Shown here: one piece after another, positions 3,809 through 17,922 of the stretch
Layout of the letters: every line of letters starts with the position of its first letter
Numbering within the stretch: the stretch's first letter is position 1
Virus record (IMG/VR): IMGVR_UViG_2526164632_000023
Reading direction: 5' to 3' (one strand)
From: a virus
Taxonomy: Duplodnaviria > Heunggongvirae > Uroviricota > Caudoviricetes
DNA length: 17,922 nucleotides
Program-made: the position numbers and the translations under genes
Notes under the pieces: generated by a model
What the model saw: the letters and a program-made list of their open reading frames with translations, nothing else
Databases searched by the model: none
What the model was told of the DNA's origin: nothing

Positions 3809-4096
3809 ATGAAACAGAAAATTTCTGGCTTTACTGCCAGCGGCCCCGCTCGGCCTGAAATCCGCCCCGGCGATATTTTCCGGGATAACTATGGCGGCAC
3901 GGTAACGATAAAAGGCGTGGTAGAACGGCACATTACTTACCGCCGTGAAGGTTATGAATATGACTGCGTGATGCCTGTTTATCAGTTCCGGCGTGATTTC
4001 ACGCTGGTGGGCCATCGTAAAGCCGTAAATCAGAAACGTGCAGCAAGTCATATCCGCAAAATTCGTGAAATGCTGGTCGCAGGGGGTAAAAAATGA
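3809..4096 (+). CDS. Hypothetical protein (95 aa), translationally coupled to the replication ATPase
   Basis: Stop overlaps the start of the 4093 ORF (ATGA). Confidence 0.5.
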   Translation: MKQKISGFTASGPARPEIRPGDIFRDNYGGTVTIKGVVERHITYRREGYEYDCVMPVYQFRRDFTLVGHRKAVNQKRAASHIRKIREMLVAGGKK

Positions 4097-5499
4097 AACT
4101 GGCACCGAACGTAAAACTGTTACCGAAAGATAAACACACTGAGGCGGTTATTTTTGCGGGTGATAATGCTCACTCCTTTGCAGAACATTACATGATTGCA
4201 CAGGCCAAAAAAGCAGGCGATCCCATCCCTCCGGTTTACCTGGGCCGTTATCAGTTAAGCGAACTGGACAACCTGCAGATTGTTGATGAGGGGCGATACA
4301 GGGTAACGGTGATACGCGCCGGAAATATTGACGAAGCGCAGCTGTTAACCATAGCGACAAAACTGGCGATCGCCGGAGTCCAGGAAGCGCGGCTGCTTTC
4401 TGAAAACTTCGAATTACTGGAGAAATGGACCGACCAGCTTCCACGGCTACGGGAGACATGGGAGAGAGGGGAAAGCCTGATCATGAACGGAGGAAAACAA
4501 AAAATCACGCTACCGATTTCATGGGGTTCTGAGGGATTCGACGCGCAGCAAAGCTACGTAATTAAGGGGCTTATTCCGGCTGAATCATTATGCAGCACCT
4601 ACGGGGCCAGCGGTTCTTATAAATCGTTCCTGGCTATTTCCTGGTCGTGCCATGTTGCCACAGGTATGGCATGGGGAGGCCGCAGGGTAAGTAAGGGCGC
4701 GGTTATCTATATCGCTGGCGAAGGCAGTATGGGCGTAAAACGCCGCGTTAAGGCGTGGGAGATAACCCACGACAAGGTGGTTACGGATTTGTGCATCGTT
4801 AACGCGCCTGTCTTCCCTGCATCGCCTGACTATGTGGAGCAGGTTATCAGGACTGCCGGACTTGTTAAGAGCAGAACGGGCGAAAATGTGCGGCTGATTG
4901 TGATCGACACGCTGGCCCGTTGCTTTGGTGGGAATGATGAAAATGATTCCCGTGATATGGGCGCATTTATCCAGGGGTGTGACGCGATAAAGCAGGCCAC
5001 AGGGGCCACGGTACTGGTGGTTCACCATTCCGGCAAGGATGAAACAAAGGGGGCGCGAGGTTCCAGCGCATTCCGCGCTGCACTGGATGCAGAGTACCGA
5101 ATCAGCCGGGAAAATTCAGACGTTACAGCACTGGTGGCGGCGTGTACGAAGATGAAAGACGCAGAGGAGCCAAAAGAGAGCGCATACGACCTTAAAAGCG
5201 TGGAGGTGTTTACCGATACCGATGGCGAAGAGATTGTGTCCATGGTGGTGATTGACGTTCCCCGCGCCCCTGCTGAACTGGAGCGCATAGAGGAGGCCGG
5301 GAACAAGACGGAAAATCACACGGCTTTATGGGGTTGTATCCGGTCACGTATACAGCATGGTGATAAATGCACGATCCCGCTGCTACGTGATGACATGAAA
5401 AAGCTGGGATATGACACAAAACACCTTAAACGATGGTTAGCCAAACTGGAAAAAGACGGCGTGATTTGCGTCGATGGGGATGATGTTCACCCACTGTAA
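4093..5499 (+). CDS. Replication initiator / RecA-fold AAA ATPase (RepA-like helicase, AAA_25-type) of the island
   Basis: 468 aa. Walker A GASGSYKSFLAISW, Walker B LIVIDTLARCFGG, VLVVHHSGKDETKGARGSSA motif typical of RepA-like helicases; followed directly by an iteron array. Confidence 0.8.
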   Translation: MKLAPNVKLLPKDKHTEAVIFAGDNAHSFAEHYMIAQAKKAGDPIPPVYLGRYQLSELDNLQIVDEGRYRVTVIRAGNIDEAQLLTIATKLAIAGVQEARLLSENFELLEKWTDQLPRLRETWERGESLIMNGGKQKITLPISWGSEGFDAQQSYVIKGLIPAESLCSTYGASGSYKSFLAISWSCHVATGMAWGGRRVSKGAVIYIAGEGSMGVKRRVKAWEITHDKVVTDLCIVNAPVFPASPDYVEQVIRTAGLVKSRTGENVRLIVIDTLARCFGGNDENDSRDMGAFIQGCDAIKQATGATVLVVHHSGKDETKGARGSSAFRAALDAEYRISRENSDVTALVAACTKMKDAEEPKESAYDLKSVEVFTDTDGEEIVSMVVIDVPRAPAELERIEEAGNKTENHTALWGCIRSRIQHGDKCTIPLLRDDMKKLGYDTKHLKRWLAKLEKDGVICVDGDDVHPL

Positions 5500-6411: not shown

Positions 6412-6954
6412 ATGACAACGCTGACCATTAACCGGAAGCCGAAAGGCATTTACGGCACGCCGCAGAAAACGACGCAGGCGGCGCAAGAGCAGGATAAAAC
6501 CACATCGGCGCATAAAGTGATACCCGATAATCAGAACGCACAGCAGAGCCGCAAACAGAAGACCGCAGGGGCGACACCGTGGCAGCATATGACCAAAAGA
6601 CAGCGCAAAAACCGCCGACGCGTTAACCGCCTCACTGAGATGTGGCCTGACTTATTCAGCCATAAAGCACCGAAGCCGCTTAAGGTGGGGATATTCGACG
6701 ACCTGATGCAGGATATCGCCGTCAGGGGGCTGGCATTCGGGTCGGGGGTATTACGTGCGACGCTGGCATCCTATGCGCAGTCTCCGCGCTATTACCGCGC
6801 CCTGATAGCTGGTGGCGCACGTTACGACCTGAAAGGCCAGCCATGTGGGGAAGTGACACCACAGGAACAGCAGGAGGCAGAAACACGGCTGATGGTGCTG
6901 AATGAGAAGCACAAGCGCCAGCGCCGGGCAGCAAAGGGGGATACATGCCAGTGA
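6412..6954 (+). CDS. ProQ/FinO-domain RNA-binding protein
   Basis: Central region PLKVGIFDDL...LRATLASYAQSPRYYRALIAGGARYDLKGQPCGEVTPQEQQEAE aligns by eye with the ProQ/FinO N-terminal domain as I remember it (PLKIGIF.DL ... LRSALRLYT.S.RY ... RVDLDGNPCGEL). Basic N- and C-terminal extensions. GGGGAAGG RBS before ATG 6412. Confidence 0.8.
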   Translation: MTTLTINRKPKGIYGTPQKTTQAAQEQDKTTSAHKVIPDNQNAQQSRKQKTAGATPWQHMTKRQRKNRRRVNRLTEMWPDLFSHKAPKPLKVGIFDDLMQDIAVRGLAFGSGVLRATLASYAQSPRYYRALIAGGARYDLKGQPCGEVTPQEQQEAETRLMVLNEKHKRQRRAAKGDTCQ

Positions 6955-7193
6955 CATTTGAAGAAGTTCAGCAACATAAAAAGCTTCATGGTTTTGATGA
7001 TCTGGAAACCACGACAGCAAAAAAATATCGTCGGTTGCTTTCTTCCGATGCGTTATTTTTTGTGGATCATCATGATTTTCTGCGTAGCTCACTGACCGGG
7101 GAAATTTTCGCAACCAACCGTGAGCAGGTGGAAGCGATGATCGAATATTTGTGGAAAATAAGACGCAGAATGCGGGAGCCAGTGAAACAATAA
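6945..7193 (+). CDS. Hypothetical protein (82 aa), last gene of early operon
   Basis: Start overlaps the previous stop; followed by a terminator hairpin. Confidence 0.5.
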   Translation: MPVTFEEVQQHKKLHGFDDLETTTAKKYRRLLSSDALFFVDHHDFLRSSLTGEIFATNREQVEAMIEYLWKIRRRMREPVKQ

Positions 7194-7202
7194 AGCGATA
7201 AA

Positions 7203-7229
7203 GGCCCGGATTTTTTCCGGGTCTTTTTT
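7203..7229 (+). terminator. Rho-independent terminator after early operon
   Basis: CCCGGA / TCCGGG stem with T-rich loop, followed by a T run (aaggcccggattttttccgggtctttttt). Confidence 0.5.
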
Positions 7230-7264
7230 CAGGTTTTGTAAATTATTTGTTCGTGGTTGTTCCA

Positions 7265-7272
7265 GGTTGTTC
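7265..7272. repeat. Target-site duplication (left copy) GGTTGTTC
   Basis: Identical 8-mer directly abuts both IS ends (7265-7272 and 9976-9983). Confidence 0.8.
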
Positions 7273-7357
7273 GTAAGCGCATCATTTAAACCGTCTTTCG
7301 CCTCCCTTTCCTGTTTCCGATACTAATGTCCATTTTCGCAGTAAAAGGACATTTAAG

Positions 7358-8008
7358 ATGAATGCACGAAAAGCGGTACTGGCAGATAATCCAGAATTGA
7401 TCCTGCGTGTGCTACAGCTGAGATTTGACGAGTCACTGTCGTACCCGCGCATTTCTGCGCAGACTGGTGTCAGCAAAACCGCCATTTTTTCTCTGGTGAG
7501 GCGATTTCACCAGGTATTCACTGACTGGCCTCTTTCCGGTGAATATTCCTGCGGGCAACTGGCCCGGGCTCTTTTCCCGGGGCGATACCCTTCAGCCCCG
7601 ACCGTGACTCAGCCTGTGAAAGCAGAGAAACCCCGCCGGAACCGATTTTCACCGGAGTTTAAATGGAGACTGGTTCAGCAAACTCTTTTACCCGGTGCCT
7701 GTGTCGCACAAATAGCTCGAGAGAATGGAATTAACGATAACCTGCTCTTTAACTGGCGGCATCTCTGGCGTAACGGTGGCCTGCAACCGCCCGGCGAACA
7801 TGAAACATCGCTACTTCCCGTGACGTTAACTCCGGAGCCGGATAATAAAATCCCGGCACCAGTGCAGATACCTGAACAGATAAATACACTGCCAGACAGT
7901 CTGTGCTGCGAGCTGGTTCTGCCGGCCGGAACTCTCAGGCTGAAAGGTGAACTGACACCGGCGTTATTACAGACACTTATCCGCGAAATGAAAGGGAGCA
8001 GCCACTGA
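7358..8008 (+). CDS. tnpA: IS66-family accessory protein TnpA (orfA)
   Basis: 216 aa with HTH-like N-terminus; position and sequence typical of IS66 orfA; stop overlaps the tnpB start. Confidence 0.8.
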   Translation: MNARKAVLADNPELILRVLQLRFDESLSYPRISAQTGVSKTAIFSLVRRFHQVFTDWPLSGEYSCGQLARALFPGRYPSAPTVTQPVKAEKPRRNRFSPEFKWRLVQQTLLPGACVAQIARENGINDNLLFNWRHLWRNGGLQPPGEHETSLLPVTLTPEPDNKIPAPVQIPEQINTLPDSLCCELVLPAGTLRLKGELTPALLQTLIREMKGSSH

Positions 8009-8355
8009 TGATATCTCTCCCTGCCGGTTCGCGTATCTGGCTGGTTGCCGGTATCACCGATATGCGAAATGGCTTTAACGGCCTGGCCTCAAAAGTTCAG
8101 AACGTCCTGAAGGATGACCCGTTCTCCGGGCATCTGTTCATCTTCCGCGGACGCCGGGGTGACCAGATAAAAGTGCTGTGGGCTGACAGTGACGGACTGT
8201 GCCTCTTCACCAAACGCCTGGAGCGGGGCCGCTTCGTCTGGCCGGTCACCCGCGATGGAAAGGTTCACCTTACTCCGGCTCAGTTGTCCATGCTTCTCGA
8301 AGGCATCGACTGGAAGCACCCGAAACGAACGGAACGCGCTGGCATCCGCATATAA
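8008..8355 (+). CDS. tnpB: IS66-family accessory protein TnpB (orfB)
   Basis: 115 aa, MISLPAGSRIWLVAGITDMRNGFNGLA...LWADSDGLCLFTKRLERGRF is the conserved IS66 orfB signature. Confidence 0.9.
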   Translation: MISLPAGSRIWLVAGITDMRNGFNGLASKVQNVLKDDPFSGHLFIFRGRRGDQIKVLWADSDGLCLFTKRLERGRFVWPVTRDGKVHLTPAQLSMLLEGIDWKHPKRTERAGIRI

Positions 8356-8374
8356 CCCGTTGTAAAGTGAGGAT

Positions 8375-9945
8375 ATGGACACCTCACTTGCTCATGAGAA
8401 TGCCCGCCTGCGGGCACTGTTGCAGACGCAACAGGACACCATCCGCCAGATGGCGAAATACAACCGCCTGCTCTCACAGCGGGTGGCGGCTTATGCTTCC
8501 GAAATCAACCGGCTGAAGGCGCTGGTTGCGAAACTGCAGCGCATGCAGTTCGGTAAAAGCTCAGAAAAACTTCGCGCTAAAACCGAACGGCAGATACAGG
8601 AAGCACAGGAGCGAATCAGCGCACTTCAGGAAGAAATGGCGGAAACGCTGGGTGAGCAATATGACCCGGTACTGCCATCCGCCCTGCGCCAGTCTTCAGC
8701 CCGTAAACCGTTACCGGCCTCACTTCCCCGTGAAACCCGGGTCATCCGGCCGGAAGAGGAATGCTGCCCGGCCTGTGGTGGTGACCTCAGTCCTCTGGGG
8801 TGTGATGTGTCAGAGCAACTGGAGCTTATCAGCAGCGCCTTTAAGGTTATCGAAACACAACGTCCGAAACTGGCCTGTTGTCGGTGCGACCATATCGTGC
8901 AGGCAACAGTACCTTCAAAACCCATTGCACGCAGTTATGCCGGAGCGGGGCTTCTGGCCCATGTTGTTACCGGGAAATATGCAGACCATCTGCCGTTATA
9001 CCGCCAGTCAGAAATATACCGTCGCCAGGGCGTGGAGCTGAGCCGCGCCACGCTGGGGCGCTGGACAGGTGCCGTTGCTGAACTGCTGGAGCCGCTGTAT
9101 GACGTCCTGCGCCAGTATGTGCTGATGCCCGGTAAAGTCCATGCTGATGATATCCCCGTCCCGGTCCAGGAGCCGGGCAGCGGTAAAACCCGGACCGCCC
9201 GGCTGTGGGTCTACGTCCGTGATGACCGTAACGCCGGTTCGGAAATGCCCCCGGCGGTCTGGTTCGCGTACTCACCGGACCGGAAAGGTATCCATCCACA
9301 AAATCATCTGGCCGGTTACAGCGGTGTGCTTCAGGCCGATGCTTACGGTGGTTACCGGGTGTTATACGAATCCGGCAGAATAACGGAAGCCGCGTGTATG
9401 GCTCATGCCCGGAGAAAAATCCACGATGTGCATGCAAGAGTGCCCACCGACATCACCACGGAAGCCCTGCAGCGTATCGGTGAACTGTATGCCATAGAGG
9501 CAGAATCCGGGGATGTACAGCAGAACAGCGTCTGGCGGCAAGAAAAGCCAGAGCTGCGCCACTGATGCAGTCACTGTATGACTGGATACAGACTCAGATG
9601 AAAACACTGTCGCGTCACTCGGATACGGCAAAAGCGTTCGCATACCTGCTGAAACAGTGGGATGGCCTGAACGTGTACTGCAGTAATGGCTGGGTGGAAA
9701 TCGACAACAACATCGCAGAGAACGCCTTACGGGGAGTGGCCGTAGGCCGGAAAAACTGGCTGTTCGCGGGTTCCGACAGCGGTGGCGAACATGCGGCGGT
9801 GTTGTACTCGCTGATCGGCACATGCCGTCTGAACAATGTGGAACCAGAAAAATGGCTGCGTTACGTCATTGAGCATATCCAGGATTGGCCGGCAAACCGG
9901 GTACGCGATCTGTTGCCCTGGAAAGTTGATCTGACCTCTCAGTAA
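8375..9945 (+). pseudogene. tnpC: IS66-family transposase TnpC, split by an apparent 1-nt frameshift near 9500-9510
   Basis: ORF 8375-9565 has the leucine-zipper N-terminus, CPACGG...CCRC zinc-finger motif and DDE core; ORF 9565-9945 in another frame carries the conserved C-terminus [26 protein letters not shown]. The second frame is open back to 9484, so the shift lies in 9484-9565. Confidence 0.8.
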
Positions 9946-9975
9946 ATATCAATACGGTTCTGGCGAGCCGCTTAC

Positions 9976-9983
9976 GGTTGTTC
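9976..9983. repeat. Target-site duplication (right copy) GGTTGTTC
   Basis: See left copy at 7265-7272. Confidence 0.8.
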
Positions 9984-10177
9984 GGTGATTCTGGCTGATG
10001 TTTACATACTGATTTTTATGTATATGTTGGCGTGTGGCACTCAGACGTGAGCCGCCACAATGCCGCCTGACCCCCTGCGCGATGCCGGGTTGATCTGCGA
10101 GATGCCGAGAGTGTCGGGCGGCGCTCCCCCCGTGTTGGTTTCACGTCCTGAATCTTAACCAATGCGAGAAAACATTC

Positions 10178-11323
10178 ATGAAGAAATTAATCGAACTCCG
10201 CCAGCAAAAAACCGCCCTGAAAAACCAGATGCGATCCCTGCTGGAAAAAGCCGACAATGAAAACCGCAGCCTGAACGATGACGAAGGCAAACAGTTTGAT
10301 GAACTGCGTGCAAAAGCCGATTCCCTCGACACAGAAATTTCCCGCCTCGAGTCTGTGGCTGATGAAGAACGTAACCAGCCTGGTGTTCCCGTCGAAGATA
10401 AAATCACCAAAAATGAGCTACGCTCTTACATTCTGACCGGGGAAACCCGCAACCTGTCCGGCAGTGTTCCGGCTGATGGTGGTTATACGGTTATCCCGGA
10501 ACTGAACAGAGAAATTATGCGTCAGCTTTCTGATGAGTCGGTGATGCGTAAAATCTGTACTGTTAAAACCATTCACAGTAATGAATTTAAGCAACTGGTT
10601 TCTGCCGGGGGTGCGGTCGTGGGACACGGCGAAGAAGGTGCGGCACGTAACCAGACGGCAACCCCAAAACTGAATGAAGTCAGTATCCGCCTGTATCCGA
10701 TCTACGCTTACCCGAAAACCACTCAGGAAATTATCGATTTTTCCGAAGTCGATATTATGGGCTGGTTATCTTCTGAAATTGGCGACACTTTCGTTGATAC
10801 CGAAGAAACGGATCTGGTTTCCGGTGATGGCGAGAAAAAAGCCAAAGGTTTCCTGACTTTCCCGCGCACTACGGATAATGACAAAACCCGTCCTTTCGGT
10901 ACGCTCCAGACGAAAAAAGTGACTGGCAGTCTCAGCGCCGATATGCTGATTGACCTGAAATTTACGCTGCGCAATAAGTACCGCAAAAAAGCTGTATGGG
11001 TGATGAACTCAAATACAGCCGCCTCCGCACAAAAACTGAAAAATGCCACTGGTGATTACATCTGGCGCGATCGTTTACAGGCTGGTGATCCTGATTCTCT
11101 GCTGGGGCTTCCGGTTGAATATCTGGAATTTATGCCGGACGGTGTGATTGCAGTCGGTGACTTTAAGCGCGGTTATTTCATCGTTGACCATAAAACCGGT
11201 ACGCGTACCCGTCCGGATTTCAGCGAGCCTGGATTCATTAACATCTATACCCAGAAATATCTGGGCGGTGGTGTGGTGGATTCGAACGCCATCAAGATTC
11301 TGGAAATTCAGGCTGGCAAGTAA
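10178..11323 (+). CDS. Major capsid protein, HK97 fold, with N-terminal coiled-coil delta/scaffold domain
   Basis: 381 aa; coiled-coil-like N-terminus MKKLIELRQQKTALKNQMRSLLEKA...; GGYTVIPE and LLGLPVEYLEFMP...GDFKRGYFIVDHKTG motifs typical of HK97-family capsid proteins. Confidence 0.85.
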   Translation: MKKLIELRQQKTALKNQMRSLLEKADNENRSLNDDEGKQFDELRAKADSLDTEISRLESVADEERNQPGVPVEDKITKNELRSYILTGETRNLSGSVPADGGYTVIPELNREIMRQLSDESVMRKICTVKTIHSNEFKQLVSAGGAVVGHGEEGAARNQTATPKLNEVSIRLYPIYAYPKTTQEIIDFSEVDIMGWLSSEIGDTFVDTEETDLVSGDGEKKAKGFLTFPRTTDNDKTRPFGTLQTKKVTGSLSADMLIDLKFTLRNKYRKKAVWVMNSNTAASAQKLKNATGDYIWRDRLQAGDPDSLLGLPVEYLEFMPDGVIAVGDFKRGYFIVDHKTGTRTRPDFSEPGFINIYTQKYLGGGVVDSNAIKILEIQAGK

Positions 11324-11331
11324 TGAGCAAA

Positions 11332-11352
11332 GGGGGCTTCGGCCTCCTTTTT
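11332..11352 (+). terminator. Hairpin with UUCG tetraloop plus T5 tract between capsid and protease genes (candidate partial terminator)
   Basis: gggggc-ttcg-gcctcc (one G-U pair) followed by ttttt, 9 nt after the capsid stop. Confidence 0.45.
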
Positions 11353-11372
11353 CAGCTTTATGGAGTACACCG

Positions 11373-11933
11373 ATGAAAAACACCGATTTTGAAATCCGTA
11401 CATCTGAACTGACCGCCAGCGATAAAAAACTGGTGGGTTATGCCGTTCGCTGGAACAGCCTTTCAGAAATTATCTGGGACGAGTTTCGCGAACAGTTCAC
11501 GCCGGGGGCTTTTGCTGACTATCTGGCGGCGGGTAATGATGTGCGCTGTCTGTATGAGCATGACTATACCCAACTGCTGGGGCGTACCAAATCCGGCTCA
11601 CTGGTACTGACTGAGGATAACACCGGGCTACGTTTTGAACTGACACCGCCAAATACCCAGCTTGGAAAAGATGTGCTTACGCTGGTGGAACGTGGCGATA
11701 TTACAGGAATGAGCTTTGGCTTTCGCGCATTATGCGAGGAGTGGAATATCGCGCAAAAACCGTATCTGCGTACTGTAACCGCCGCAGAACTCCGTGAAAT
11801 CACGATAACATCGATGCCTGCTTATCCCGAATCCGGCGTGGAGATTGCCCACCGTTCGTTGTTTGCACAGTACCCTGAATTACGCCCGGCAGGAAATAAT
11901 CGTCATCGCTGGGCTGAACTGGCGGGGTTGTGA
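11373..11933 (+). CDS. Prohead maturation protease, HK97 family (S78/U35-like)
   Basis: Start at ATG 11373 with GGAG 8 nt upstream. KLVGYAVRWNS...FTPGAFADYL...LYEHDYTQLLGRTKSGSLVLTEDNTGLRFE...GDITGMSFGF matches the HK97 prohead protease family. Confidence 0.85.
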   Translation: MKNTDFEIRTSELTASDKKLVGYAVRWNSLSEIIWDEFREQFTPGAFADYLAAGNDVRCLYEHDYTQLLGRTKSGSLVLTEDNTGLRFELTPPNTQLGKDVLTLVERGDITGMSFGFRALCEEWNIAQKPYLRTVTAAELREITITSMPAYPESGVEIAHRSLFAQYPELRPAGNNRHRWAELAGL

Positions 11934-11934
11934 T

Positions 11935-13149
11935 ATGTGGTGGCCTTTTAGTCGTAAAAAAAGCGATCTGCGTAACCTGTCCATTGATGATTTTCTGGCG
12001 TTGTCTGGTGTACCAAATACCGGATCCGGAGAATATGTTTCTGCCGGGACGGCTGAATCATTGCCTGCTGTGATGAACGCGGTTTCTGTCATCGCTGAGG
12101 CGGTGGCCACGATGCCGTGTTACCTGTATCTGGTACGCAATGATAAGGGCAGAGAGGCGCGGGAATGGCTGGACAGTCACCCGGTAGATATTCTGCTGAA
12201 TGAGCAGCCTAATTCGTGCCTGACACCTTACCAGTTTAAACGCACAATGATGCGTCACTGCCTGCTGAACGGTAACGCCTATGCGGTTATTGAGTGGGGG
12301 CGGGACGGGCAGCCAAAATCACTTCATCCTTATGCGCCGGGGTGTGTTGTACCGGAACGCACAGGCACACACAAATACCGCTATACCATCACCGAACCCT
12401 GTACAGGAACGGTGCGCACGTATTTACAGGAAGAAGTTCTGCATCTCCGCTATGCCTCGGATGATGGCTTTCTGGGGCGTTCCCCCGTCACGATTTGCCG
12501 TGAGGCGCTGGGGCTTGGCCTTGCTCAACAGCGCCACGGAGCCAGCATTATGAAAGATGGCATGATGGCGGCAGGGATTATCACGTCAGGTGAATGGCTG
12601 GACGGCGTGAAAGGTAAACAGGCATTAGACGCACTGGAACGCTACAAGGGGGCGAAAAATGCCGGAAAAACGCCAATCCTTGAAGGGGGCATGGATTACA
12701 GGCAGCTGGGGATGAGTAACCAGGATGCGGAATGGCTGGCCTCCCGTCGCTTCTCCATTGAAGACATCGCCAGGATGTTCAACGTGTCGCCGATTTTTCT
12801 TCAGGAATACAGCAACAGCACCTACAGCAATTTCAGTGAGGCGAGCCGCGCATTTCTGACCATGACAATGCGCCCGTGGCTGGCGAACTTCGAACAGCAA
12901 ATCAAGGCCGCTTTGCTGGTGACTTCTCCCGTACCTGGTACCCGTTATCTGGTTGAGTTTGATTCAGCCGATTTACTGCGCGCCACACCCACCGAACGTT
13001 ATGCCACGTATGAGAAAGGGATTAAGAGCGGGATCATGAATCCGAACGAAGCTCGCGAACGCGAGGGTATGCCGCCGCGTGAAGGTGGTGATGAGTTCAG
13101 CCAGGCATGGAAACAGACTGTGAAAATTAAAGGGAGAAAAGATGAGTGA
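11935..13149 (+). CDS. Portal protein, HK97 family
   Basis: About 404 aa from ATG 11935, immediately after the protease stop; sequence typical of HK97-type portal proteins. Confidence 0.85.
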   Translation: MWWPFSRKKSDLRNLSIDDFLALSGVPNTGSGEYVSAGTAESLPAVMNAVSVIAEAVATMPCYLYLVRNDKGREAREWLDSHPVDILLNEQPNSCLTPYQFKRTMMRHCLLNGNAYAVIEWGRDGQPKSLHPYAPGCVVPERTGTHKYRYTITEPCTGTVRTYLQEEVLHLRYASDDGFLGRSPVTICREALGLGLAQQRHGASIMKDGMMAAGIITSGEWLDGVKGKQALDALERYKGAKNAGKTPILEGGMDYRQLGMSNQDAEWLASRRFSIEDIARMFNVSPIFLQEYSNSTYSNFSEASRAFLTMTMRPWLANFEQQIKAALLVTSPVPGTRYLVEFDSADLLRATPTERYATYEKGIKSGIMNPNEAREREGMPPREGGDEFSQAWKQTVKIKGRKDE

Positions 13150-13444
13150 AGCCAGAATTACACCTGATGAAGTCAGGGCACATCTTCGACTTGATGATGA
13201 TTTATCCGGTGAAGGCGAACTTCTGAAAATGTATACCGATGCGGCGCTGGAAGCCTGCCAGAAGCATATCGGGAAACGTTTTGAAGACGGGCTGGAATTT
13301 ACCCCGGCAATGCGTGTTGGTTGCCTGATGTACATCGCTTTCCTGTACGAGAACAGGGAAGCAGTTTCACCAGTGGAGCAGTCTGAACTGCCTATGGCTA
13401 TTTCTGCGCTCTGGTCGGTTTATCGTGATGTGGGGGTGTACTGA
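13142..13444 (+). CDS. Head-tail connector / gp6-like adaptor protein
   Basis: 100 aa, ITPDEVRAHLRLDDD...GELLKMYTDAALEACQKHIGKRF pattern typical of gp6-like head-tail connector proteins; start overlaps the portal stop. Confidence 0.65.
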   Translation: MSEARITPDEVRAHLRLDDDLSGEGELLKMYTDAALEACQKHIGKRFEDGLEFTPAMRVGCLMYIAFLYENREAVSPVEQSELPMAISALWSVYRDVGVY

Positions 13445-13884
13445 TGCCGTGGCAACCATTAAGGCGATGCACTGAGCCGGGCTGTAATAAGCGCGTGAAG
13501 TCCGGCAAGTGTGAAGAGCACAGACGGGCTGTATGGCGTGCAGAGGATGCCAGACGGGGACACCGCCGCGCGCGCGGGTATTCCCGACAGTGGGACAAAT
13601 ACCGCGCCCTGTACCTGAGCAAAAACCCGTTATGCGTGCGTTGTCTGGCTAAGGGGATTTATACGCCAGCTCTTGTGGTGGATCACATCATCCCCATCAA
13701 TGGCGGCGGTGATGTTCTCTTCTGGCCTGAGTGGAACCACCAGGCATTGTGCCAGACGTGCCACAACCGTAAGACGACACGGGAAGATCCAGCCACGAAA
13801 GCGAACCGTAAGGCGGGCATGTATCGCGAGCAGGAAGAACGGGCAGCACACCGTAACGACTGGATGTATGGCGATGATGACTGA
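13444..13884 (+). CDS. HNH endonuclease (packaging-associated)
   Basis: Cys-rich; CVRCLAKGIYTPALVVDHIIPINGGGD...WNHQALCQTCHNRKT contains an HNH-type D-H...N...H arrangement; sits beside terS/terL as in HNH-dependent cos packaging modules. Confidence 0.8.
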   Translation: MPWQPLRRCTEPGCNKRVKSGKCEEHRRAVWRAEDARRGHRRARGYSRQWDKYRALYLSKNPLCVRCLAKGIYTPALVVDHIIPINGGGDVLFWPEWNHQALCQTCHNRKTTREDPATKANRKAGMYREQEERAAHRNDWMYGDDD

Positions 13885-14053
13885 ACAGGAGCAAACCAGG
13901 CTGATACGTGGACTGATAAGGCAGCGTGACTTATGGAAGACACAGGAGACAGGGCACAAAGCCAACAGGACAGGGCGCACAAAACGCACCACAGCGAAGC
14001 GATTAACCGACCGTGACCGCGAGGTCATGGAATGTTTTCGCAATCGCTGGTGA
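13868..14053 (+). CDS. Small Arg/Thr-rich hypothetical protein (about 61 aa)
   Basis: In-frame ATGs at 13868/13874/13877 overlapping the HNH stop; MAMMTEQEQTRLIRGLIRQRDLWKTQETGHKANRTGRTKRTTAKRLTDRDREVMECFRNRW. Could be spurious. Confidence 0.25.
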   Translation: MAMMTEQEQTRLIRGLIRQRDLWKTQETGHKANRTGRTKRTTAKRLTDRDREVMECFRNRW

Positions 14054-14172
14054 GGCCGTCAGAGGGGGTGGGGGTGGTTTTCAGGACGAAACCGTCCCTG
14101 CCGGACACCGACCGCCTCCTCAAATTTTTGTGCACGGGAATTTTTTTGAAAATAATTGGGCGAAAAAAGAAC
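14054..14172. other. Candidate cos/packaging-initiation region between HNH and terS
   Basis: 119-bp non-coding gap with G-rich block (gagggggtgggggtgg), hairpin ggacg-aaac-cgtcc and T-rich tracts, positioned where cohesive-end sites lie in HNH-dependent HK97-like modules. Confidence 0.3.
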
Positions 14173-14529
14173 ATGGCAAGACCACCAAAAGCCCCCGCTT
14201 ACCTGGATGAAATCGCGGTCAGGCAGTGGAAGGAAAAATCGCGCCAGCTTTCCGGACGGGAAGACCTTACCCCCGCCGACTGGAGCAATCTGGAGCTGTA
14301 TTGTGTTAACTACTCCATATACCGCAAAGCCGTCGAAGACCTTGCCACGCGCGGGTTCAGCATTGTTAACAGTCAGGGCAGCGAGAGCAGAAACCCCGCC
14401 CTGAGCGCAAAGGCTGACGCTGAAAGAATAATGATCAAAATGGCTTCTTTGCTGGGTTTTGACCCGGTAAGTCGCCGCAGAAATCCACCGGAAACAGAGG
14501 AAGAGGACGAGCTTGACCGCCTGGCATGA
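14173..14529 (+). CDS. Terminase small subunit, P27 family
   Basis: Start at ATG 14173 (MARPPKAP...). LTPADWSNLELYCVNYSIYRKAVEDLATRGF...SRNPALSAKADAERIMIKMASLLGFDPVSRRR matches the P27-type TerS pattern. Confidence 0.75.
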   Translation: MARPPKAPAYLDEIAVRQWKEKSRQLSGREDLTPADWSNLELYCVNYSIYRKAVEDLATRGFSIVNSQGSESRNPALSAKADAERIMIKMASLLGFDPVSRRRNPPETEEEDELDRLA

Positions 14530-16174
14530 GTACGCAGAAGGCGTAAAAAACGGCAAAATTACGGCCTGTAAACGACTGAAACAGGCCGTTAAACGGTATT
14601 TTTCTGACCTTGAAAACCCCCTTTACACGTTCGATCCGGAGGTCGTGGAGCGGTTTATTGCCTTTTCCAGGGTGTGTCCGCACGTAAAAGGCGCAATGCG
14701 CGGTAGCCCCATTGAGCTGGAGCCGTGGCAGCAGTTCGCCTTTGCGTGCATCCTGGGCTTTAAGGTTAAGGCCACCGGACGGCGCAAATACACCAGCGCA
14801 TTCATTGAAGTGCCGCGAAAAAATGCCAAATCCACGGTCGCCGCTATCCTGGCTAACTGGTTTCTGGTTATGGAAAACGGGCAGCAGGATATTTACACCG
14901 CCGCCGTGAGTCGTGATCAGGCGCGGATCGTGTTTGATGATGCGCGTCAGATGTGCCTTTTATCCCGACCGTTACGAAAGCGGGTAAATATTCAGGCACA
15001 CAAGGTGATACACCCGAAAACCAACAGCCTGTTAAAGCCACTGGCAGCAAAAGCGGCAACCATTGAAGGTACAAACCCGAGTCTTGCCATTGTGGATGAA
15101 TATCACCTGCACCCTGACAACGGGGTTTATTCCGCGCTTGAACTGGGAATGGGGGCGCGTCCGGAGGGGCTGTTATTTGCCATCACCACATCGGGGAGCA
15201 ACGTTGTTTCAGCCTGTAAACAACACTATGACTATTGCTGCCAGATACTGGATGGTGAAGAGGTGAACGAATCCATGTTCGTGCTGATTTACGAGCTGGA
15301 TGATGAAAGCGAGGTTGACGATCCGGCGATGTGGATAAAGGCGAATCCCAATATCGATGTTTCCGTCGATCGTGAAAAACTGGCCTCAACCATCCAGAAA
15401 GCGCGGGGTATTCCGTCGCAGTGGGTGGAAATGCTCACCAAGCGATTCAATATCTGGTGTCAGGGGGCTACGCCGTGGATGGGTAACGGTGCATGGGCGG
15501 AGTGCGCCGGAACGTTCGCGGAGGCGGATTTATACGGTCAGGAGTGCTACGCGGGGCTGGACTTATCATCAACCAGCGATATTTCCAGCGTGTGCTATGC
15601 CTTTCCGGTCGGTAAAAAGATTATGCTGGTTTCCCGTCACTATCTGCCGGAATTTCAGCTACAGAACCCCGCCAATAAAAACCGCGCCATCTATCGCCAG
15701 TGGGTAAAGGCGGGCTGGATACGCACAACACCGGGTGACTGCATTGATTATGACCGTATCCGTGATGACATCATGGCGGATGCAGAGAATTTCAATATCA
15801 GGCTGGTGGGCTTCGATACATGGAACGCCACGCACCTGAGGACGCAGCTACAGGGGGCAGGATTTGAGGTGGAGCCGTTCCCGCAAACATACCTTCGTTT
15901 CAGTCCGGCGGCGAAATCGTTCGAAGTTTTTGTTAACCGGAAGGTGATTGTGCATCGTGGCGATCCGGTGCTGGCCTGGTCAATGAGTAATGTTGTGATG
16001 CAGAGTGACGCGAACGCCAATATCAAGCCGAACAAGAAAAAATCATCCAACAAGATAGACCCGAGCGTTGCGGCTCTGATGGCTTTTGGCACATTCCAGG
16101 CAGAGCATGAGGAATTTGCATTTGATATGAGCGACAGCCACAAAGAGCGGCTTGCGGCGTTTGATGGGGTATGA
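14513..16174 (+). CDS. Terminase large subunit
   Basis: 553 aa; N-terminal ATPase and C-terminal nuclease regions typical of TerL; overlaps the terS end by 17 nt. Confidence 0.9.
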   Translation: MTAWHEYAEGVKNGKITACKRLKQAVKRYFSDLENPLYTFDPEVVERFIAFSRVCPHVKGAMRGSPIELEPWQQFAFACILGFKVKATGRRKYTSAFIEVPRKNAKSTVAAILANWFLVMENGQQDIYTAAVSRDQARIVFDDARQMCLLSRPLRKRVNIQAHKVIHPKTNSLLKPLAAKAATIEGTNPSLAIVDEYHLHPDNGVYSALELGMGARPEGLLFAITTSGSNVVSACKQHYDYCCQILDGEEVNESMFVLIYELDDESEVDDPAMWIKANPNIDVSVDREKLASTIQKARGIPSQWVEMLTKRFNIWCQGATPWMGNGAWAECAGTFAEADLYGQECYAGLDLSSTSDISSVCYAFPVGKKIMLVSRHYLPEFQLQNPANKNRAIYRQWVKAGWIRTTPGDCIDYDRIRDDIMADAENFNIRLVGFDTWNATHLRTQLQGAGFEVEPFPQTYLRFSPAAKSFEVFVNRKVIVHRGDPVLAWSMSNVVMQSDANANIKPNKKKSSNKIDPSVAALMAFGTFQAEHEEFAFDMSDSHKERLAAFDGV

Positions 16175-17385: not shown

Positions 17386-17922
17386 ATGAAACATATTGTA
17401 GAAGTAATGATCCCCGAAGCGGAGATTAAAGCGCGTATCGCCGAACTGGGTCGTCAGATTACTGAGCGTTACAAAGACAGCGGCAGCGATATGGTGCTGG
17501 TGGGTCTGCTGCGTGGCTCATTTATGTTTATGGCGGACCTGTGCCGTGAAGTTCAGGTATCTCATGAAGTCGACTTTATGACCGCCTCCAGCTACGGTAG
17601 CGGCATGTCCACCACCCGTGATGTGAAAATCCTCAAAGATCTGGATGAAGATATCCGTGGCAAGGACGTGCTGATTGTTGAAGATATCATCGACTCGGGG
17701 AATACACTGTCGAAAGTGCGTGAGATCTTAAGCCTGCGCGAACCGAAGTCGCTGGCGATTTGTACGCTGCTGGATAAACCGTCCCGTCGTGAAGTGAACG
17801 TCCCGGTAGAATTTATCGGTTTCTCGATCCCGGATGAGTTTGTGGTGGGTTACGGCATTGATTACGCACAGCGTTACCGTCATCTGCCGTATATCGGCAA
17901 AGTGATTCTGCTGGACGAGTAA
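17386..17922 (+). CDS. hpt: Hypoxanthine phosphoribosyltransferase (chromosomal core gene)
   Basis: 178-aa product is near-identical to E. coli Hpt as I remember it ([55 protein letters not shown]...); complete, with stop at the window end. Confidence 0.95.

Follow-up and report, generated by a model that had tools for sequence, protein, structure and literature searches.

The capsid and protease genes of an E. coli phage satellite, a capsid-forming phage-inducible chromosomal island (cf-PICI), are separated by a stable hairpin with a short U run, which on balance probably serves as a leaky intrinsic terminator and, at the same time, as a stem that protects the 3' end of the capsid mRNA. The finding is real but ordinary, since the annotation of HK97 already has a structure of this kind behind the capsid gene. 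The window, i.e. the whole stretch of viral DNA that was analysed (IMG/VR record IMGVR_UViG_2526164632_000023), has a length of 17,922 nucleotides.

The window is a cf-PICI of E. coli. Positions 10000–12000 are 100% identical to an island on the E. coli AST240 chromosome that lies between gcd and hpt, and the gene set is that of a cf-PICI: int, AlpA, a RepA-type helicase and SSB, then the genes from capsid to terL. The integrase gene (1–1227; Arm-DNA-bind_3, Phage_int_M and Phage_integrase matches) stands at the island end, with an AlpA-type regulator ORF beside it (2343–2669; PF05930 Phage_AlpA, E 6e-12). The int-alpA RNA (1236–1302) alone passed the gathering score when the whole window was searched against Rfam. 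A gene annotated as a helicase of the RepA family (4093–5499; AAA_25 match) fills the primase/replicase-type role. A ProQ/FinO-family protein is encoded at 6412–6954, and the replication/regulation module is closed by a terminator-like hairpin (7200–7226, + strand; 11-bp stem and a long T run; from the strict scan described below). An IS66-family element of 2.7 kb (7273–9975) is inserted upstream of the packaging operon's candidate promoter. The AST240 copy of the island is uninterrupted, and none of 5,426 complete E. coli genomes carries the island-IS junction.

Measured from int to its final ORF, the island is about 16.5 kb with the IS and about 13.8 kb without it. The cf-PICI criteria used were those of the preprint of Alqurainy et al. 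(2022) and of the SatelliteFinder model of de Sousa et al. (2023), and include a size of about 10–15 kb and the absence of tail, holin or lysis genes. Pfam searches identified the island's own capsid, protease, portal, HNH, terS and terL genes, and no PHROGs match to tail or lysis families was obtained among the nine island proteins scanned (seven otherwise unassigned ORFs, the adaptor and the ProQ/FinO protein). A second head-tail joining gene is absent: the window has the adaptor (Ad1 type, 13142–13444) and no Hc1, a gene that the E. coli 042 element also lacks. Since an element with 10 of the 11 core components still counts as Type B in the published scheme, the missing Hc1 does not bar membership. 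Helper-phage induction and small capsids that take phage tails have been demonstrated, in the cited preprints, only for EcCIEDL933 and a small number of other elements.

The packaging genes are all on the + strand. The product of the major capsid protein gene (10178–11323; Pfam PF05065 Phage_capsid, E 8e-61) has the HK97 fold and an N-terminal delta/scaffold domain, and is labelled 'phage major capsid protein' by RefSeq at the 100% identical AST240 locus. The gene is followed by those for the prohead serine protease (11373–11933; PF04586 Peptidase_S78, E 5e-45) and the portal (11935–13149; PF04860 Phage_portal, E 2e-91), the portal start being the position equivalent to the RefSeq start in the identical locus. 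Then come the head-tail adaptor (Ad1 or gp6-like connector; 13142–13444; PF05135 Phage_connect_1 and PHROG 40 'head-tail adaptor Ad1'), an HNH endonuclease with a packaging accessory role (13444–13884; PF01844), the small terminase of the P27 family (14173–14529; PF05119 Terminase_4, start from the RefSeq annotation) and the large terminase with its ATPase and nuclease parts (14513–16174; PF03354 and PF20441). Pfam thus agrees with the order given in the initial annotation (capsid, protease, portal, connector, HNH, terS, terL). Its description of this order as the reverse of that in phages held for the first part only: the capsid-protease-portal genes are inverted, and stand upstream of an HNH-(cos)-terS-terL block that is arranged as in phages. 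When gene order was compared in related islands, the capsid-first order was found to be common to EcCIEDL933 and all of about 88 close relatives, and was therefore already known. It is the published family layout of proteobacterial cf-PICIs and no peculiarity of this window; as a published hallmark, it adds little as found. Those who described EcCIEDL933 remarked on the 'different genetic organisations' of the island and its helper phage HK106.

EcCIEDL933 (CP-933C or O-island 51) is the prototype cf-PICI of E. coli O157:H7. Like the window, it carries capsid, protease, portal, connector(s), HNH, small ORF, terS, terL and small ORF in this order, downstream of the int-alpA-replication genes, and in both elements a DUF4222 gene precedes the replication gene. 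The capsids share about 74% protein identity, and the DNA about 71% across the junction. The two differ in integration site (roxA-phoQ for EcCIEDL933, gcd-hpt for the window island), in replication gene (DUF927 versus the RepA-family helicase) and in connectors (Hc1 head closure and adaptor genes versus Ad1 only), and a PerC-like gene of EcCIEDL933 stands where the window has the ProQ/FinO-family gene. At the same capsid-protease position EcCIEDL933 has a hairpin, GAAGGGGCT-TAAA-AGCCCCTTT, followed by the T-rich AGTGTTTT; unlike that of the window, its loop is not UUCG. It also has a homologous structured leader (described below), with compensatory changes in helix P1. CP-933C is mentioned only in passing in a study of ciprofloxacin.

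The UUCG hairpin and T5 tract first noticed between the capsid and protease genes were confirmed in the sequence and by folding. The hairpin occupies the 49-nt gap between the two genes, on the coding strand, at one of the operon's only two non-overlapping junctions. The terminator-like structure (11329–11350, + strand) has 9 bp and reads AAAGGGGGC-TTCG-GCCTCCTTT as DNA and AAAGGGGGC-UUCG-GCCUCCUUU as RNA. Its GC core (11332–11347) consists of 6 bp, five G-C and one G.U wobble (G11334.U11345), around a C(UUCG)G loop (11338–11341), and is lengthened by three A-U pairs, the first three T of the T5 tract (11348–11352, + strand; read from the sequence) being able to pair with A11329–11331. After the stem, UUUUU is followed by CAGCUUU, with five U within the first 8 nt. 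The hairpin was present in the MFE and centroid folds in both 63-nt and 161-nt contexts, for which the z-scores of the whole-segment fold energy were modest (−1.9 and −2.2, respectively). Simple-stem energies were −13.3 kcal/mol for the full hairpin and −9.9 kcal/mol for the GC core.

A strict terminator scan (hairpin dG ≤ −10 kcal/mol and either a T run of ≥4 or ≥6 T in 8) gave four sites in the 17.9 kb, both strands included, versus 0.9 per shuffled window; the capsid-protease hairpin is one of the four. The capsid-protease site was not listed by a looser scan of the window, probably because that scan extends the stem into the T run. The hairpin is single copy in the window, and a repeat or mobile origin was ruled out on this ground. 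An Rfam search of 9976–11420 (E ≤ 10) returned chance-level matches, that of the hairpin being confined to the end of an sRNA model, a generic terminator. From the T run to the protease ATG there are 20 nt, which contain only the protease Shine-Dalgarno sequence GGAG (11362–11365, + strand, 7 nt before the ATG; read from the sequence); in most related junctions this is kept as TGGAGTCC or TGGAGTAC. So short a gap leaves no room for a promoter. An internal protease promoter was rejected, as a consensus scan of the + strand from 10028 to 12220 found no promoter-like sites.

Relatives were collected by an IMG/VR search with a capsid alignment; a search of genome contigs with a single capsid protein gave one useful locus (Rosenbergiella). 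A hairpin of ≤ −9.6 kcal/mol, 1–14 nt past the capsid stop, was found in 84 of 88 loci (52 of 56 unique junctions), and likewise in 105 of the 109 loci of a second sample, chosen by the leader motif. Hairpin-bearing cf-PICIs span many enterobacterial and Morganellaceae-like lineages. The intergenic flanks differ widely among loci. The loop is UNCG in 30 unique junctions and GAAA, GAAAA, AAAA or ACAGC in others. L010 and L023 have A-U where the window has its G.U pair, and in most relatives 3–5 T follow the GC core. In one group the same junction holds an unrelated stem, GCGTTCCTG-TGATCT-CAGGAGCGC, with a T run, and the hairpin is still kept where an HNH_3 homing-endonuclease ORF has been inserted between it and the protease gene. 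It is missing in L043/L047, L048 and L052 (gaps of 5–19 nt), from which it follows that the hairpin is not indispensable. In a stem covariation test the G-run and C-run arms paired almost equally when slid by +1 to +3, and MAFFT had placed the sequences with 5-nt loops out of register in that alignment; the case for conservation rests on position and on non-homologous replacement. Selection on the structure is indicated, since about 96% of the loci retain it despite turnover of the flanks and an unrelated hairpin has taken its place in one lineage. Generality to all HK97-fold capsid genes was rejected, as no intergenic hairpin was found after the capsid gene of the Firmicutes relatives L004–L008 (about 25% identity).

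Upstream of the capsid gene, a candidate sigma-70 promoter of the packaging operon lies at 10001–10028 (+ strand; TTTACA, 16-nt spacer, TATGTT), with 9 of 12 matches in the consensus scan. A −10-like TATAT(G/C)TT is conserved across the islands and the −35 is not; the site would function as the promoter. The capsid gene has a start without a Shine-Dalgarno sequence. The capsid operon is headed by a conserved, structured leader RNA of about 140 nt (10034–10173, + strand) with helices P1 (10034–10058), P2 (10062–10071/10113–10122) and P3 (10137–10145/10165–10173). RNAalifold gave changes on both sides in 13 of 19 predicted pairs, 94.7% of the cells pair in the named structure versus about 40% with the partners slid, and none of 500 shuffles reached the observed score. 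The P1 motif was located 118–144 nt upstream of the capsid ATG in 118 of 120 IMG/VR contigs, and the only genes that the leader was seen to precede are capsid genes of cf-PICIs. Only chance-level Rfam matches were obtained (9976–11420 of the window and 12050–12300 of L014; E ≤ 10). The leader, which came to light because the hairpin was checked, is apparently an undescribed structured RNA, more novel than the hairpin, and deserves a study of its own.

Partial termination and/or 3' stabilisation that favours the capsid mRNA is the reading that best fits the evidence from the sequence. A fraction of the RNA polymerases would stop at about 11350–11354, and the product would be a roughly 1.3-kb capsid-only mRNA ending in the stable C(UUCG)G hairpin. 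The remaining polymerases would read through and yield the protease, portal, adaptor, HNH and terminase mRNA, so that capsid message would exceed downstream message. Such an excess would fit a T=4 shell with about 235 capsid per 12 portal subunits; the capsid of EcCIEDL933 is T=4, with 240 MCP positions and one penton replaced by the portal. We infer termination at the hairpin, its partial nature and its setting of the protein ratio. Sequence features of an intrinsic terminator are present (GC-rich stem, short loop and a U-rich tract directly after the stem). A d'Aubenton-Carafa-type score, which is a rough guide only with modern energy parameters in the old discriminant, was +13.8 for the hairpin, +28.9 for the island's terminator at 7200–7226 and +31 for the trp attenuator, and the U tract of the hairpin is shorter than those of the other two. 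The short T run (3–5 T) suggests a weak to moderate terminator. Read-through would have to occur, because transfer of EcCIEDL933 needs all the packaging genes and no promoter-like site lies between. In strand-specific RNA-seq of EDL933 the homologous Z1847–Z1849 were silent (RPKM 0–4) in all 11 conditions, so that no step-down could be read.

The annotated 'putative terminator' behind the HK97 capsid gene (described below) is a precedent for this reading, and ST64B and phiP27 have hairpins there as well. In T7, the T-phi terminator is located after gene 10, which encodes the major capsid protein. The likeness lies in the principle that an inefficient terminator behind the structural gene in greatest demand increases the mRNA of that gene over that of the genes downstream. 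T-phi differs in that it works on the polymerase of T7, with an efficiency known from measurement; the window hairpin is putative and would act on the host RNA polymerase. Inefficient terminators that balance phage expression have been described for LUZ7, and cited for T7 (PMC9163698).

It is plausible, though unlikely, that the hairpin is mainly a stabiliser of the mRNA 3' end or a processing boundary, with little real termination and near-full read-through. After endonucleolytic cleavage the UUCG hairpin would block 3'–5' exonucleases while P1 of the leader guards the 5' end, and the capsid mRNA would outlive the downstream message; the predicted transcript start at the base of the P1 stem would leave this mRNA bracketed by two stems. 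The phages ST64B and phiP27 (P27-type terminase), the closest true-phage relatives of the capsid (about 33–36% identity), also have a stable GC hairpin in a 46–50-nt gap right after the capsid gene. Their gene order is canonical and, unlike intrinsic terminators, their hairpins have no U run, so that a stabiliser role fits them better than a terminator role. HK97 (NC_002167) has an annotated 'putative terminator' at 5192–5213, 6 nt after gene 5 (major head protein). This hairpin, GGGCGGG-GAAA-CCCGCCC followed by TTTT, is like that of the window a GC-rich tetraloop structure a few nt behind the capsid stop, in a morphogenesis operon that lies on one strand and whose downstream genes are essential. 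In the window the protease follows; in HK97, with its order terS-terL-portal-protease-capsid, it is the head-tail adaptor that comes next. Late transcription of HK97 is Q-antiterminated, and its annotated terminator therefore cannot act mainly by termination; no Q-type factor is known for cf-PICIs, whereas HK97 has one. Many cf-PICI relatives, too, have only 2–3 T after the stem. Most cf-PICI junctions, however, keep 3–6 T directly after the GC core, of which a pure stabiliser would need none, and the hairpin of the window is positive on the terminator discriminant. The terminator and stabiliser roles are compatible and not exclusive. Since HK97, ST64B and phiP27 carry a hairpin with the canonical order, it tracks the capsid gene and not the order, which weakens the proposal that the capsid-first order exists to allow control by a terminator.

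We consider it rather improbable that the hairpin is a conditional terminator, which would block leaky transcription from protease to terminase in the uninduced state and be overridden by processive antitermination after induction. The agent would be a put-like leader RNA, AlpA, a helper-phage factor or the island's ProQ/FinO-family protein. The covarying leader heads the operon in most islands, and T runs are somewhat longer in leader-bearing than in leader-less islands (on average 5.0 versus 4.0 T within the first 8 nt), but shared ancestry confounds this small difference, and strict coupling of leader and hairpin was not found among the related loci. AlpA of P. aeruginosa is a processive antiterminator (PMC7969949); the AlpA of the window (PF05930), however, matched none of the solved P. 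aeruginosa AlpA-RNAP complexes by sequence, its only hit being 8c3t, an 'AlpA family phage regulatory protein'. It was rejected as the antiterminator on this ground, the name alone being no evidence. Two papers (PMC12001967, PMC7367173) describe binding of FinO-domain proteins to intrinsic terminators, and the protein encoded at 6412–6954 could bind the terminator stem. Such a gene is present in only 5 of the 88 loci, however, and cannot explain a family-wide hairpin, so that it was rejected as the partner. The two preprints searched describe no antitermination element for cf-PICIs.

It is highly improbable that the hairpin is functionless in the island, a relic carried with the capsid gene from a phage ancestor: related phages have a hairpin at the equivalent place and the four relatives that lost it keep their downstream genes intact, but retention in nearly all loci while the flanking intergenic sequence turned over, and the swap in one lineage for an unrelated hairpin and T run, argue against it.

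With a leaky terminator and protecting 3' stem as the preferred reading, the conserved hairpin offers a handle on how a 14-kb satellite sets a capsid:portal stoichiometry of roughly 20:1, and is relevant to the engineering of cf-PICI capsids for delivery. There is also a slim chance that the share of polymerases getting past the capsid-protease terminator is set by the leader, the hairpin then being one half of a regulated read-through; the leader would work either in cis, as the put RNA of HK022 does, or via a bound factor. If this were so, the satellite would tune its output of capsid versus protease, portal and terminase upon induction.

The gene layout was derived from the ORF listing and Pfam scans of the window, in which nearly all genes lie on the + strand. 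A tyrosine integrase gene (1-1227) is followed, directly after its stop codon, by an int-alpA RNA (Rfam RF02996; 1236-1302, +; 55 bits against a gathering score of 35.8), an AlpA-family regulator (within 2343-2669), a DUF4222 protein, a RepA-type helicase (4093-5499), SSB, a ProQ/FinO-family protein (6412-6954, +; PF04352, E 9e-24) and a small conserved ORF (6945-7193). Beyond an IS66-family element (7273-9975) lie the genes for capsid (10178-11323), prohead protease (11373-11933), portal (11935-13149), an Ad1-type adaptor (13142-13444) and HNH (13444-13884), a small ORF, P27-type terS (14173-14529), terL (14513-16174) and a further small ORF; chromosomal hpt starts at 17386. No tail or lysis family was matched when nine window proteins, including seven otherwise unassigned ORFs, were compared with PHROGs. 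Positions 10000-12000 are 100% identical to the gcd-hpt island of E. coli AST240 and O166:H15 strains. By the definitions of Alqurainy et al. (bioRxiv 10.1101/2022.09.08.507074) and de Sousa et al. (PMC10085698), the window is a capsid-forming phage-inducible chromosomal island (cf-PICI), with 10 of the 11 core components, since the head-closure gene (Hc1) is missing. The Ad1-type adaptor likewise stands alone in the E. coli 042 island, whereas islands of the GN06667 type and of the type of the prototype EcCIEDL933 carry Hc1 between portal and adaptor (11207-11838 in related locus L009). EcCIEDL933 and E. coli 042 also differ from the window in having a PerC-like gene at the place of the ProQ/FinO-family gene, which was found in only 5 of 88 related loci.

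The gene order of the initial annotation was correct by the Pfam and ORF map, but it is the norm of the cf-PICI family and no peculiarity of the window: in the comparison with related islands, capsid came first in all loci, about 88, whose capsid was 58% or more identical. The EcCIEDL933-type island of O157:H7 reads capsid, protease, portal, head closure, connector, HNH, ORF, terS, terL, and capsid-first order also occurs in E. coli 042, GN06667 and UTAK-14 and in the deposited 'phages' vB_KppS-Ant and Pasteurella Pmp8. The nearest capsids among true phages are those of ST64B and phiP27 (33-36% identity); these phages and HK97 have the order (HNH-cos-)terS-terL-portal-protease-capsid-adaptor. 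The description of the island as the reverse of the usual arrangement thus held for capsid, protease and portal and not for the HNH-terS-terL block, which is unchanged; the difference lies in an inverted, upstream capsid-protease-portal trio. 'Different genetic organisations' of the island and its helper phage HK106 were already noted by those who described cf-PICIs (bioRxiv 10.1101/2022.09.08.507074), and the capsid-first order was known before.

The packaged vB_KppS-Ant genome starts with terS and ends after the ORF 3' of HNH, which places cos in the 119-nt gap before terS and not near the capsid gene. The phiP27 record annotates cos between HNH and terS, and the corresponding gap in the window (14054-14172) is probably the cos region. 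It is the only non-overlapping junction of the packaging operon besides that between capsid and protease; the remaining junctions overlap or abut. A hairpin-like site was also seen near this gap, at 14011-14030.

The capsid-protease gap is 49 nt long (11324-11372) and contains, on the + strand, the hairpin AAAGGGGGC-UUCG-GCCUCCUUU (11329-11350), a T5 run (11348-11352) lying partly within the hairpin and partly beyond it and, 9 nt after this run, the GGAG of the protease gene (11362-11365; ATG at 11373). The stable UUCG-loop hairpin reported earlier was recovered in the MFE and centroid folds of both 63-nt and 161-nt contexts, and its G11334.U11345 wobble can pair only in + strand RNA. A strict scan of both strands of the whole window returned four terminator-like sites (0.9 in shuffles), the second on the + strand being 7200-7226.

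Conservation was assessed in 80 IMG/VR loci from a capsid-alignment search, together with E. coli, Rosenbergiella, Klebsiella-type and Pasteurella loci. In 84 of 88 loci, representing 52 of 56 different junction sequences, a simple hairpin of -9.6 kcal/mol or lower lies 1-14 nt past the capsid stop. In a second sample, picked by a leader motif instead of the capsid, it was found in 105 of 109, and two of the four misses were bulged hairpins under-scored by the hairpin finder. The sequence from stop codon to stem is entirely different between lineages; the loop is UUCG, UACG, UGCG or UCCG in 30 distinct junctions and of the GAAA, GAAAA, AAAA or ACAGC type elsewhere; L010 and L023 have A-U in place of the window's G.U pair; in one lineage the same position is occupied by an unrelated stem, GCGTTCCTG-TGATCT-CAGGAGCGC, with a T run after it; and the hairpin is kept in four loci (L049, L072, L076, L077) in which an HNH_3 homing-endonuclease-type ORF, an insert of about 530 nt (e.g. 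L072 4209-4748), separates it from the protease gene. These features point to selection on the structure; counting covariation formally is uninformative, since the G/C homopolymer arms also pair when slid. The hairpin was absent from three junction types (L043/L047, L048 and L052; capsid-protease gaps of 5-19 nt), of which only L047 has the structured leader described below. As an element the hairpin is of a known kind, to which it adds a new and well-conserved example; the words 'terminator' and 'promoter' are absent from both cf-PICI preprints.

In most junctions the GC core is followed by a run of 3-5 T. A d'Aubenton-Carafa-style discriminant, rough because modern energies were put into the old formula, gave +13.8 for the window hairpin, +28.9 for the upstream terminator of the island and +31 for the trp attenuator, and on this score the post-capsid hairpin looks like a weak to moderate terminator. 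Both island terminators have stems extended by A-tract/U-tract pairing; FinO-domain proteins are binders of intrinsic terminator hairpins. Read-through must occur, because a scan of the + strand from 10028 to 12220 found no promoter-like site, the protease ATG follows the T run after only 20 nt, and every packaging-module gene mutated in EcCIEDL933 was reported necessary for transfer (bioRxiv 10.1101/2022.09.08.507074). The EcCIEDL933 shell has T=4 geometry and 240 capsid positions, the portal taking the place of one penton (cf-PICI preprint); capsid is needed in large excess over portal. The partial termination proposed initially is, with some confidence, our preferred reading: polymerase would stop in part at the hairpin, the remainder continuing into protease and onward, and the terminated capsid mRNA would keep a protected 3' end, raising its level over that of downstream mRNA. 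PMC9163698 documents leaky terminators as a means of balancing expression in phage LUZ7 and cites T7 for the same. In strand-specific RNA-seq of EDL933, Z1847-Z1849 were silent in all 11 conditions, in agreement with the reported failure of resident EDL933 prophages to induce EcCIEDL933 (bioRxiv 10.1101/2022.09.08.507074).

Post-capsid hairpins also occur in phages. In the RefSeq record of HK97, a 'putative terminator' (GGGCGGG-GAAA-CCCGCCC-TTTT) is marked at 5192-5213, 6 nt past gene 5, with others after the portal, tail-terminator and major-tail genes; ST64B and phiP27 have stable GC hairpins without a U run in a post-capsid gap of 46-50 nt. The hairpin is thus a feature of the capsid cistron's 3' end, whatever gene comes next, and the idea that the capsid-first order arose in order to make use of it loses weight. 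A gap of this kind is missing in distant Firmicutes relatives. That the island hairpin, with its T run, is purely a stabiliser or a processing boundary, roles for which a stem lacking a U run might serve, is unlikely. A conditional terminator overridden by antitermination is more doubtful: antitermination acting on the hairpin is one candidate role of the structured leader before the capsid gene (10034-10173), besides 5' stabiliser and translational control, and strict co-occurrence of leader and hairpin was not found across related loci. A functionless relic is highly improbable beside the signs of selection.

The 7200-7226 site (+), right after ORF 6945-7193, is a hairpin resembling a strong intrinsic terminator, with an 11-bp stem and a long T run. 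It closes the replication/regulation module, and the packaging operon therefore has its own promoter or needs antitermination. A candidate promoter (TTTACA, 10001-10006; TATGTT, 10023-10028) lies before the capsid gene. The IS66-family element (2703 bp; ends GTAAGCG and CGCTTAC) contains tnpA, tnpB and tnpC, the last of these split at 9565. Its insertion point lies 18 bp before the candidate -35, and an 8-bp target duplication, GGTTGTTC (7265-7272 and 9976-9983), flanks the element. Because the element separates the candidate core promoter from a conserved block comprising TTTTGTAAAT (7234-7243) and three 10-bp-spaced (T/G)TTGTTC(G/C) repeats, the packaging operon of this copy may be severed from whatever activates it. 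The otherwise identical AST240 island lacks the element, and the island-IS junction occurs in none of 5,426 complete E. coli genomes.

The leader was found by aligning the 300 nt upstream of capsid genes. It is about 140 nt long, with equivalents in L002, L009-L014 and about 120 IMG/VR loci, and comprises on the + strand P1 (10034-10058; GUGGC-A-CUCA-GACG-UGAG-CC-GCCAC), P2 (10062-10071 with 10113-10122), a long-range stem enclosing a variable insert, and P3 (10137-10145 with 10165-10173), ending 4 nt before the capsid ATG. Transcription from the candidate promoter would start at the base of P1; no Shine-Dalgarno sequence is recognisable before the capsid start codon. RNAalifold predicted P1 and P2, and 13 of its 19 pairs show changes on both sides; 94.7% of cells in the named structure pair, against about 40% when slid, and the observed covariation was reached by none of 500 shuffles. 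P3 is conserved with hardly any variation. G.U pairs are frequent, which fits a + strand RNA. The P1 core is present as a single copy per contig in at least 120 IMG/VR contigs, 118-144 nt upstream of a capsid ATG in 118, the other two being truncated by the contig boundary. The leader was not found in true phages by blastn and had no Rfam family match; only three of 50,697 phage records matched, all cf-PICI-like. Towards the end of the 106-kb record of Klebsiella phage P12620-1 (PQ569648.1), at 102124-103419, lie a leader and a capsid gene of cf-PICI type; the record may be chimeric through assembly, or a satellite may have been assembled together with its helper. Of the features described, the leader RNA is the one that may strike a specialist as new.
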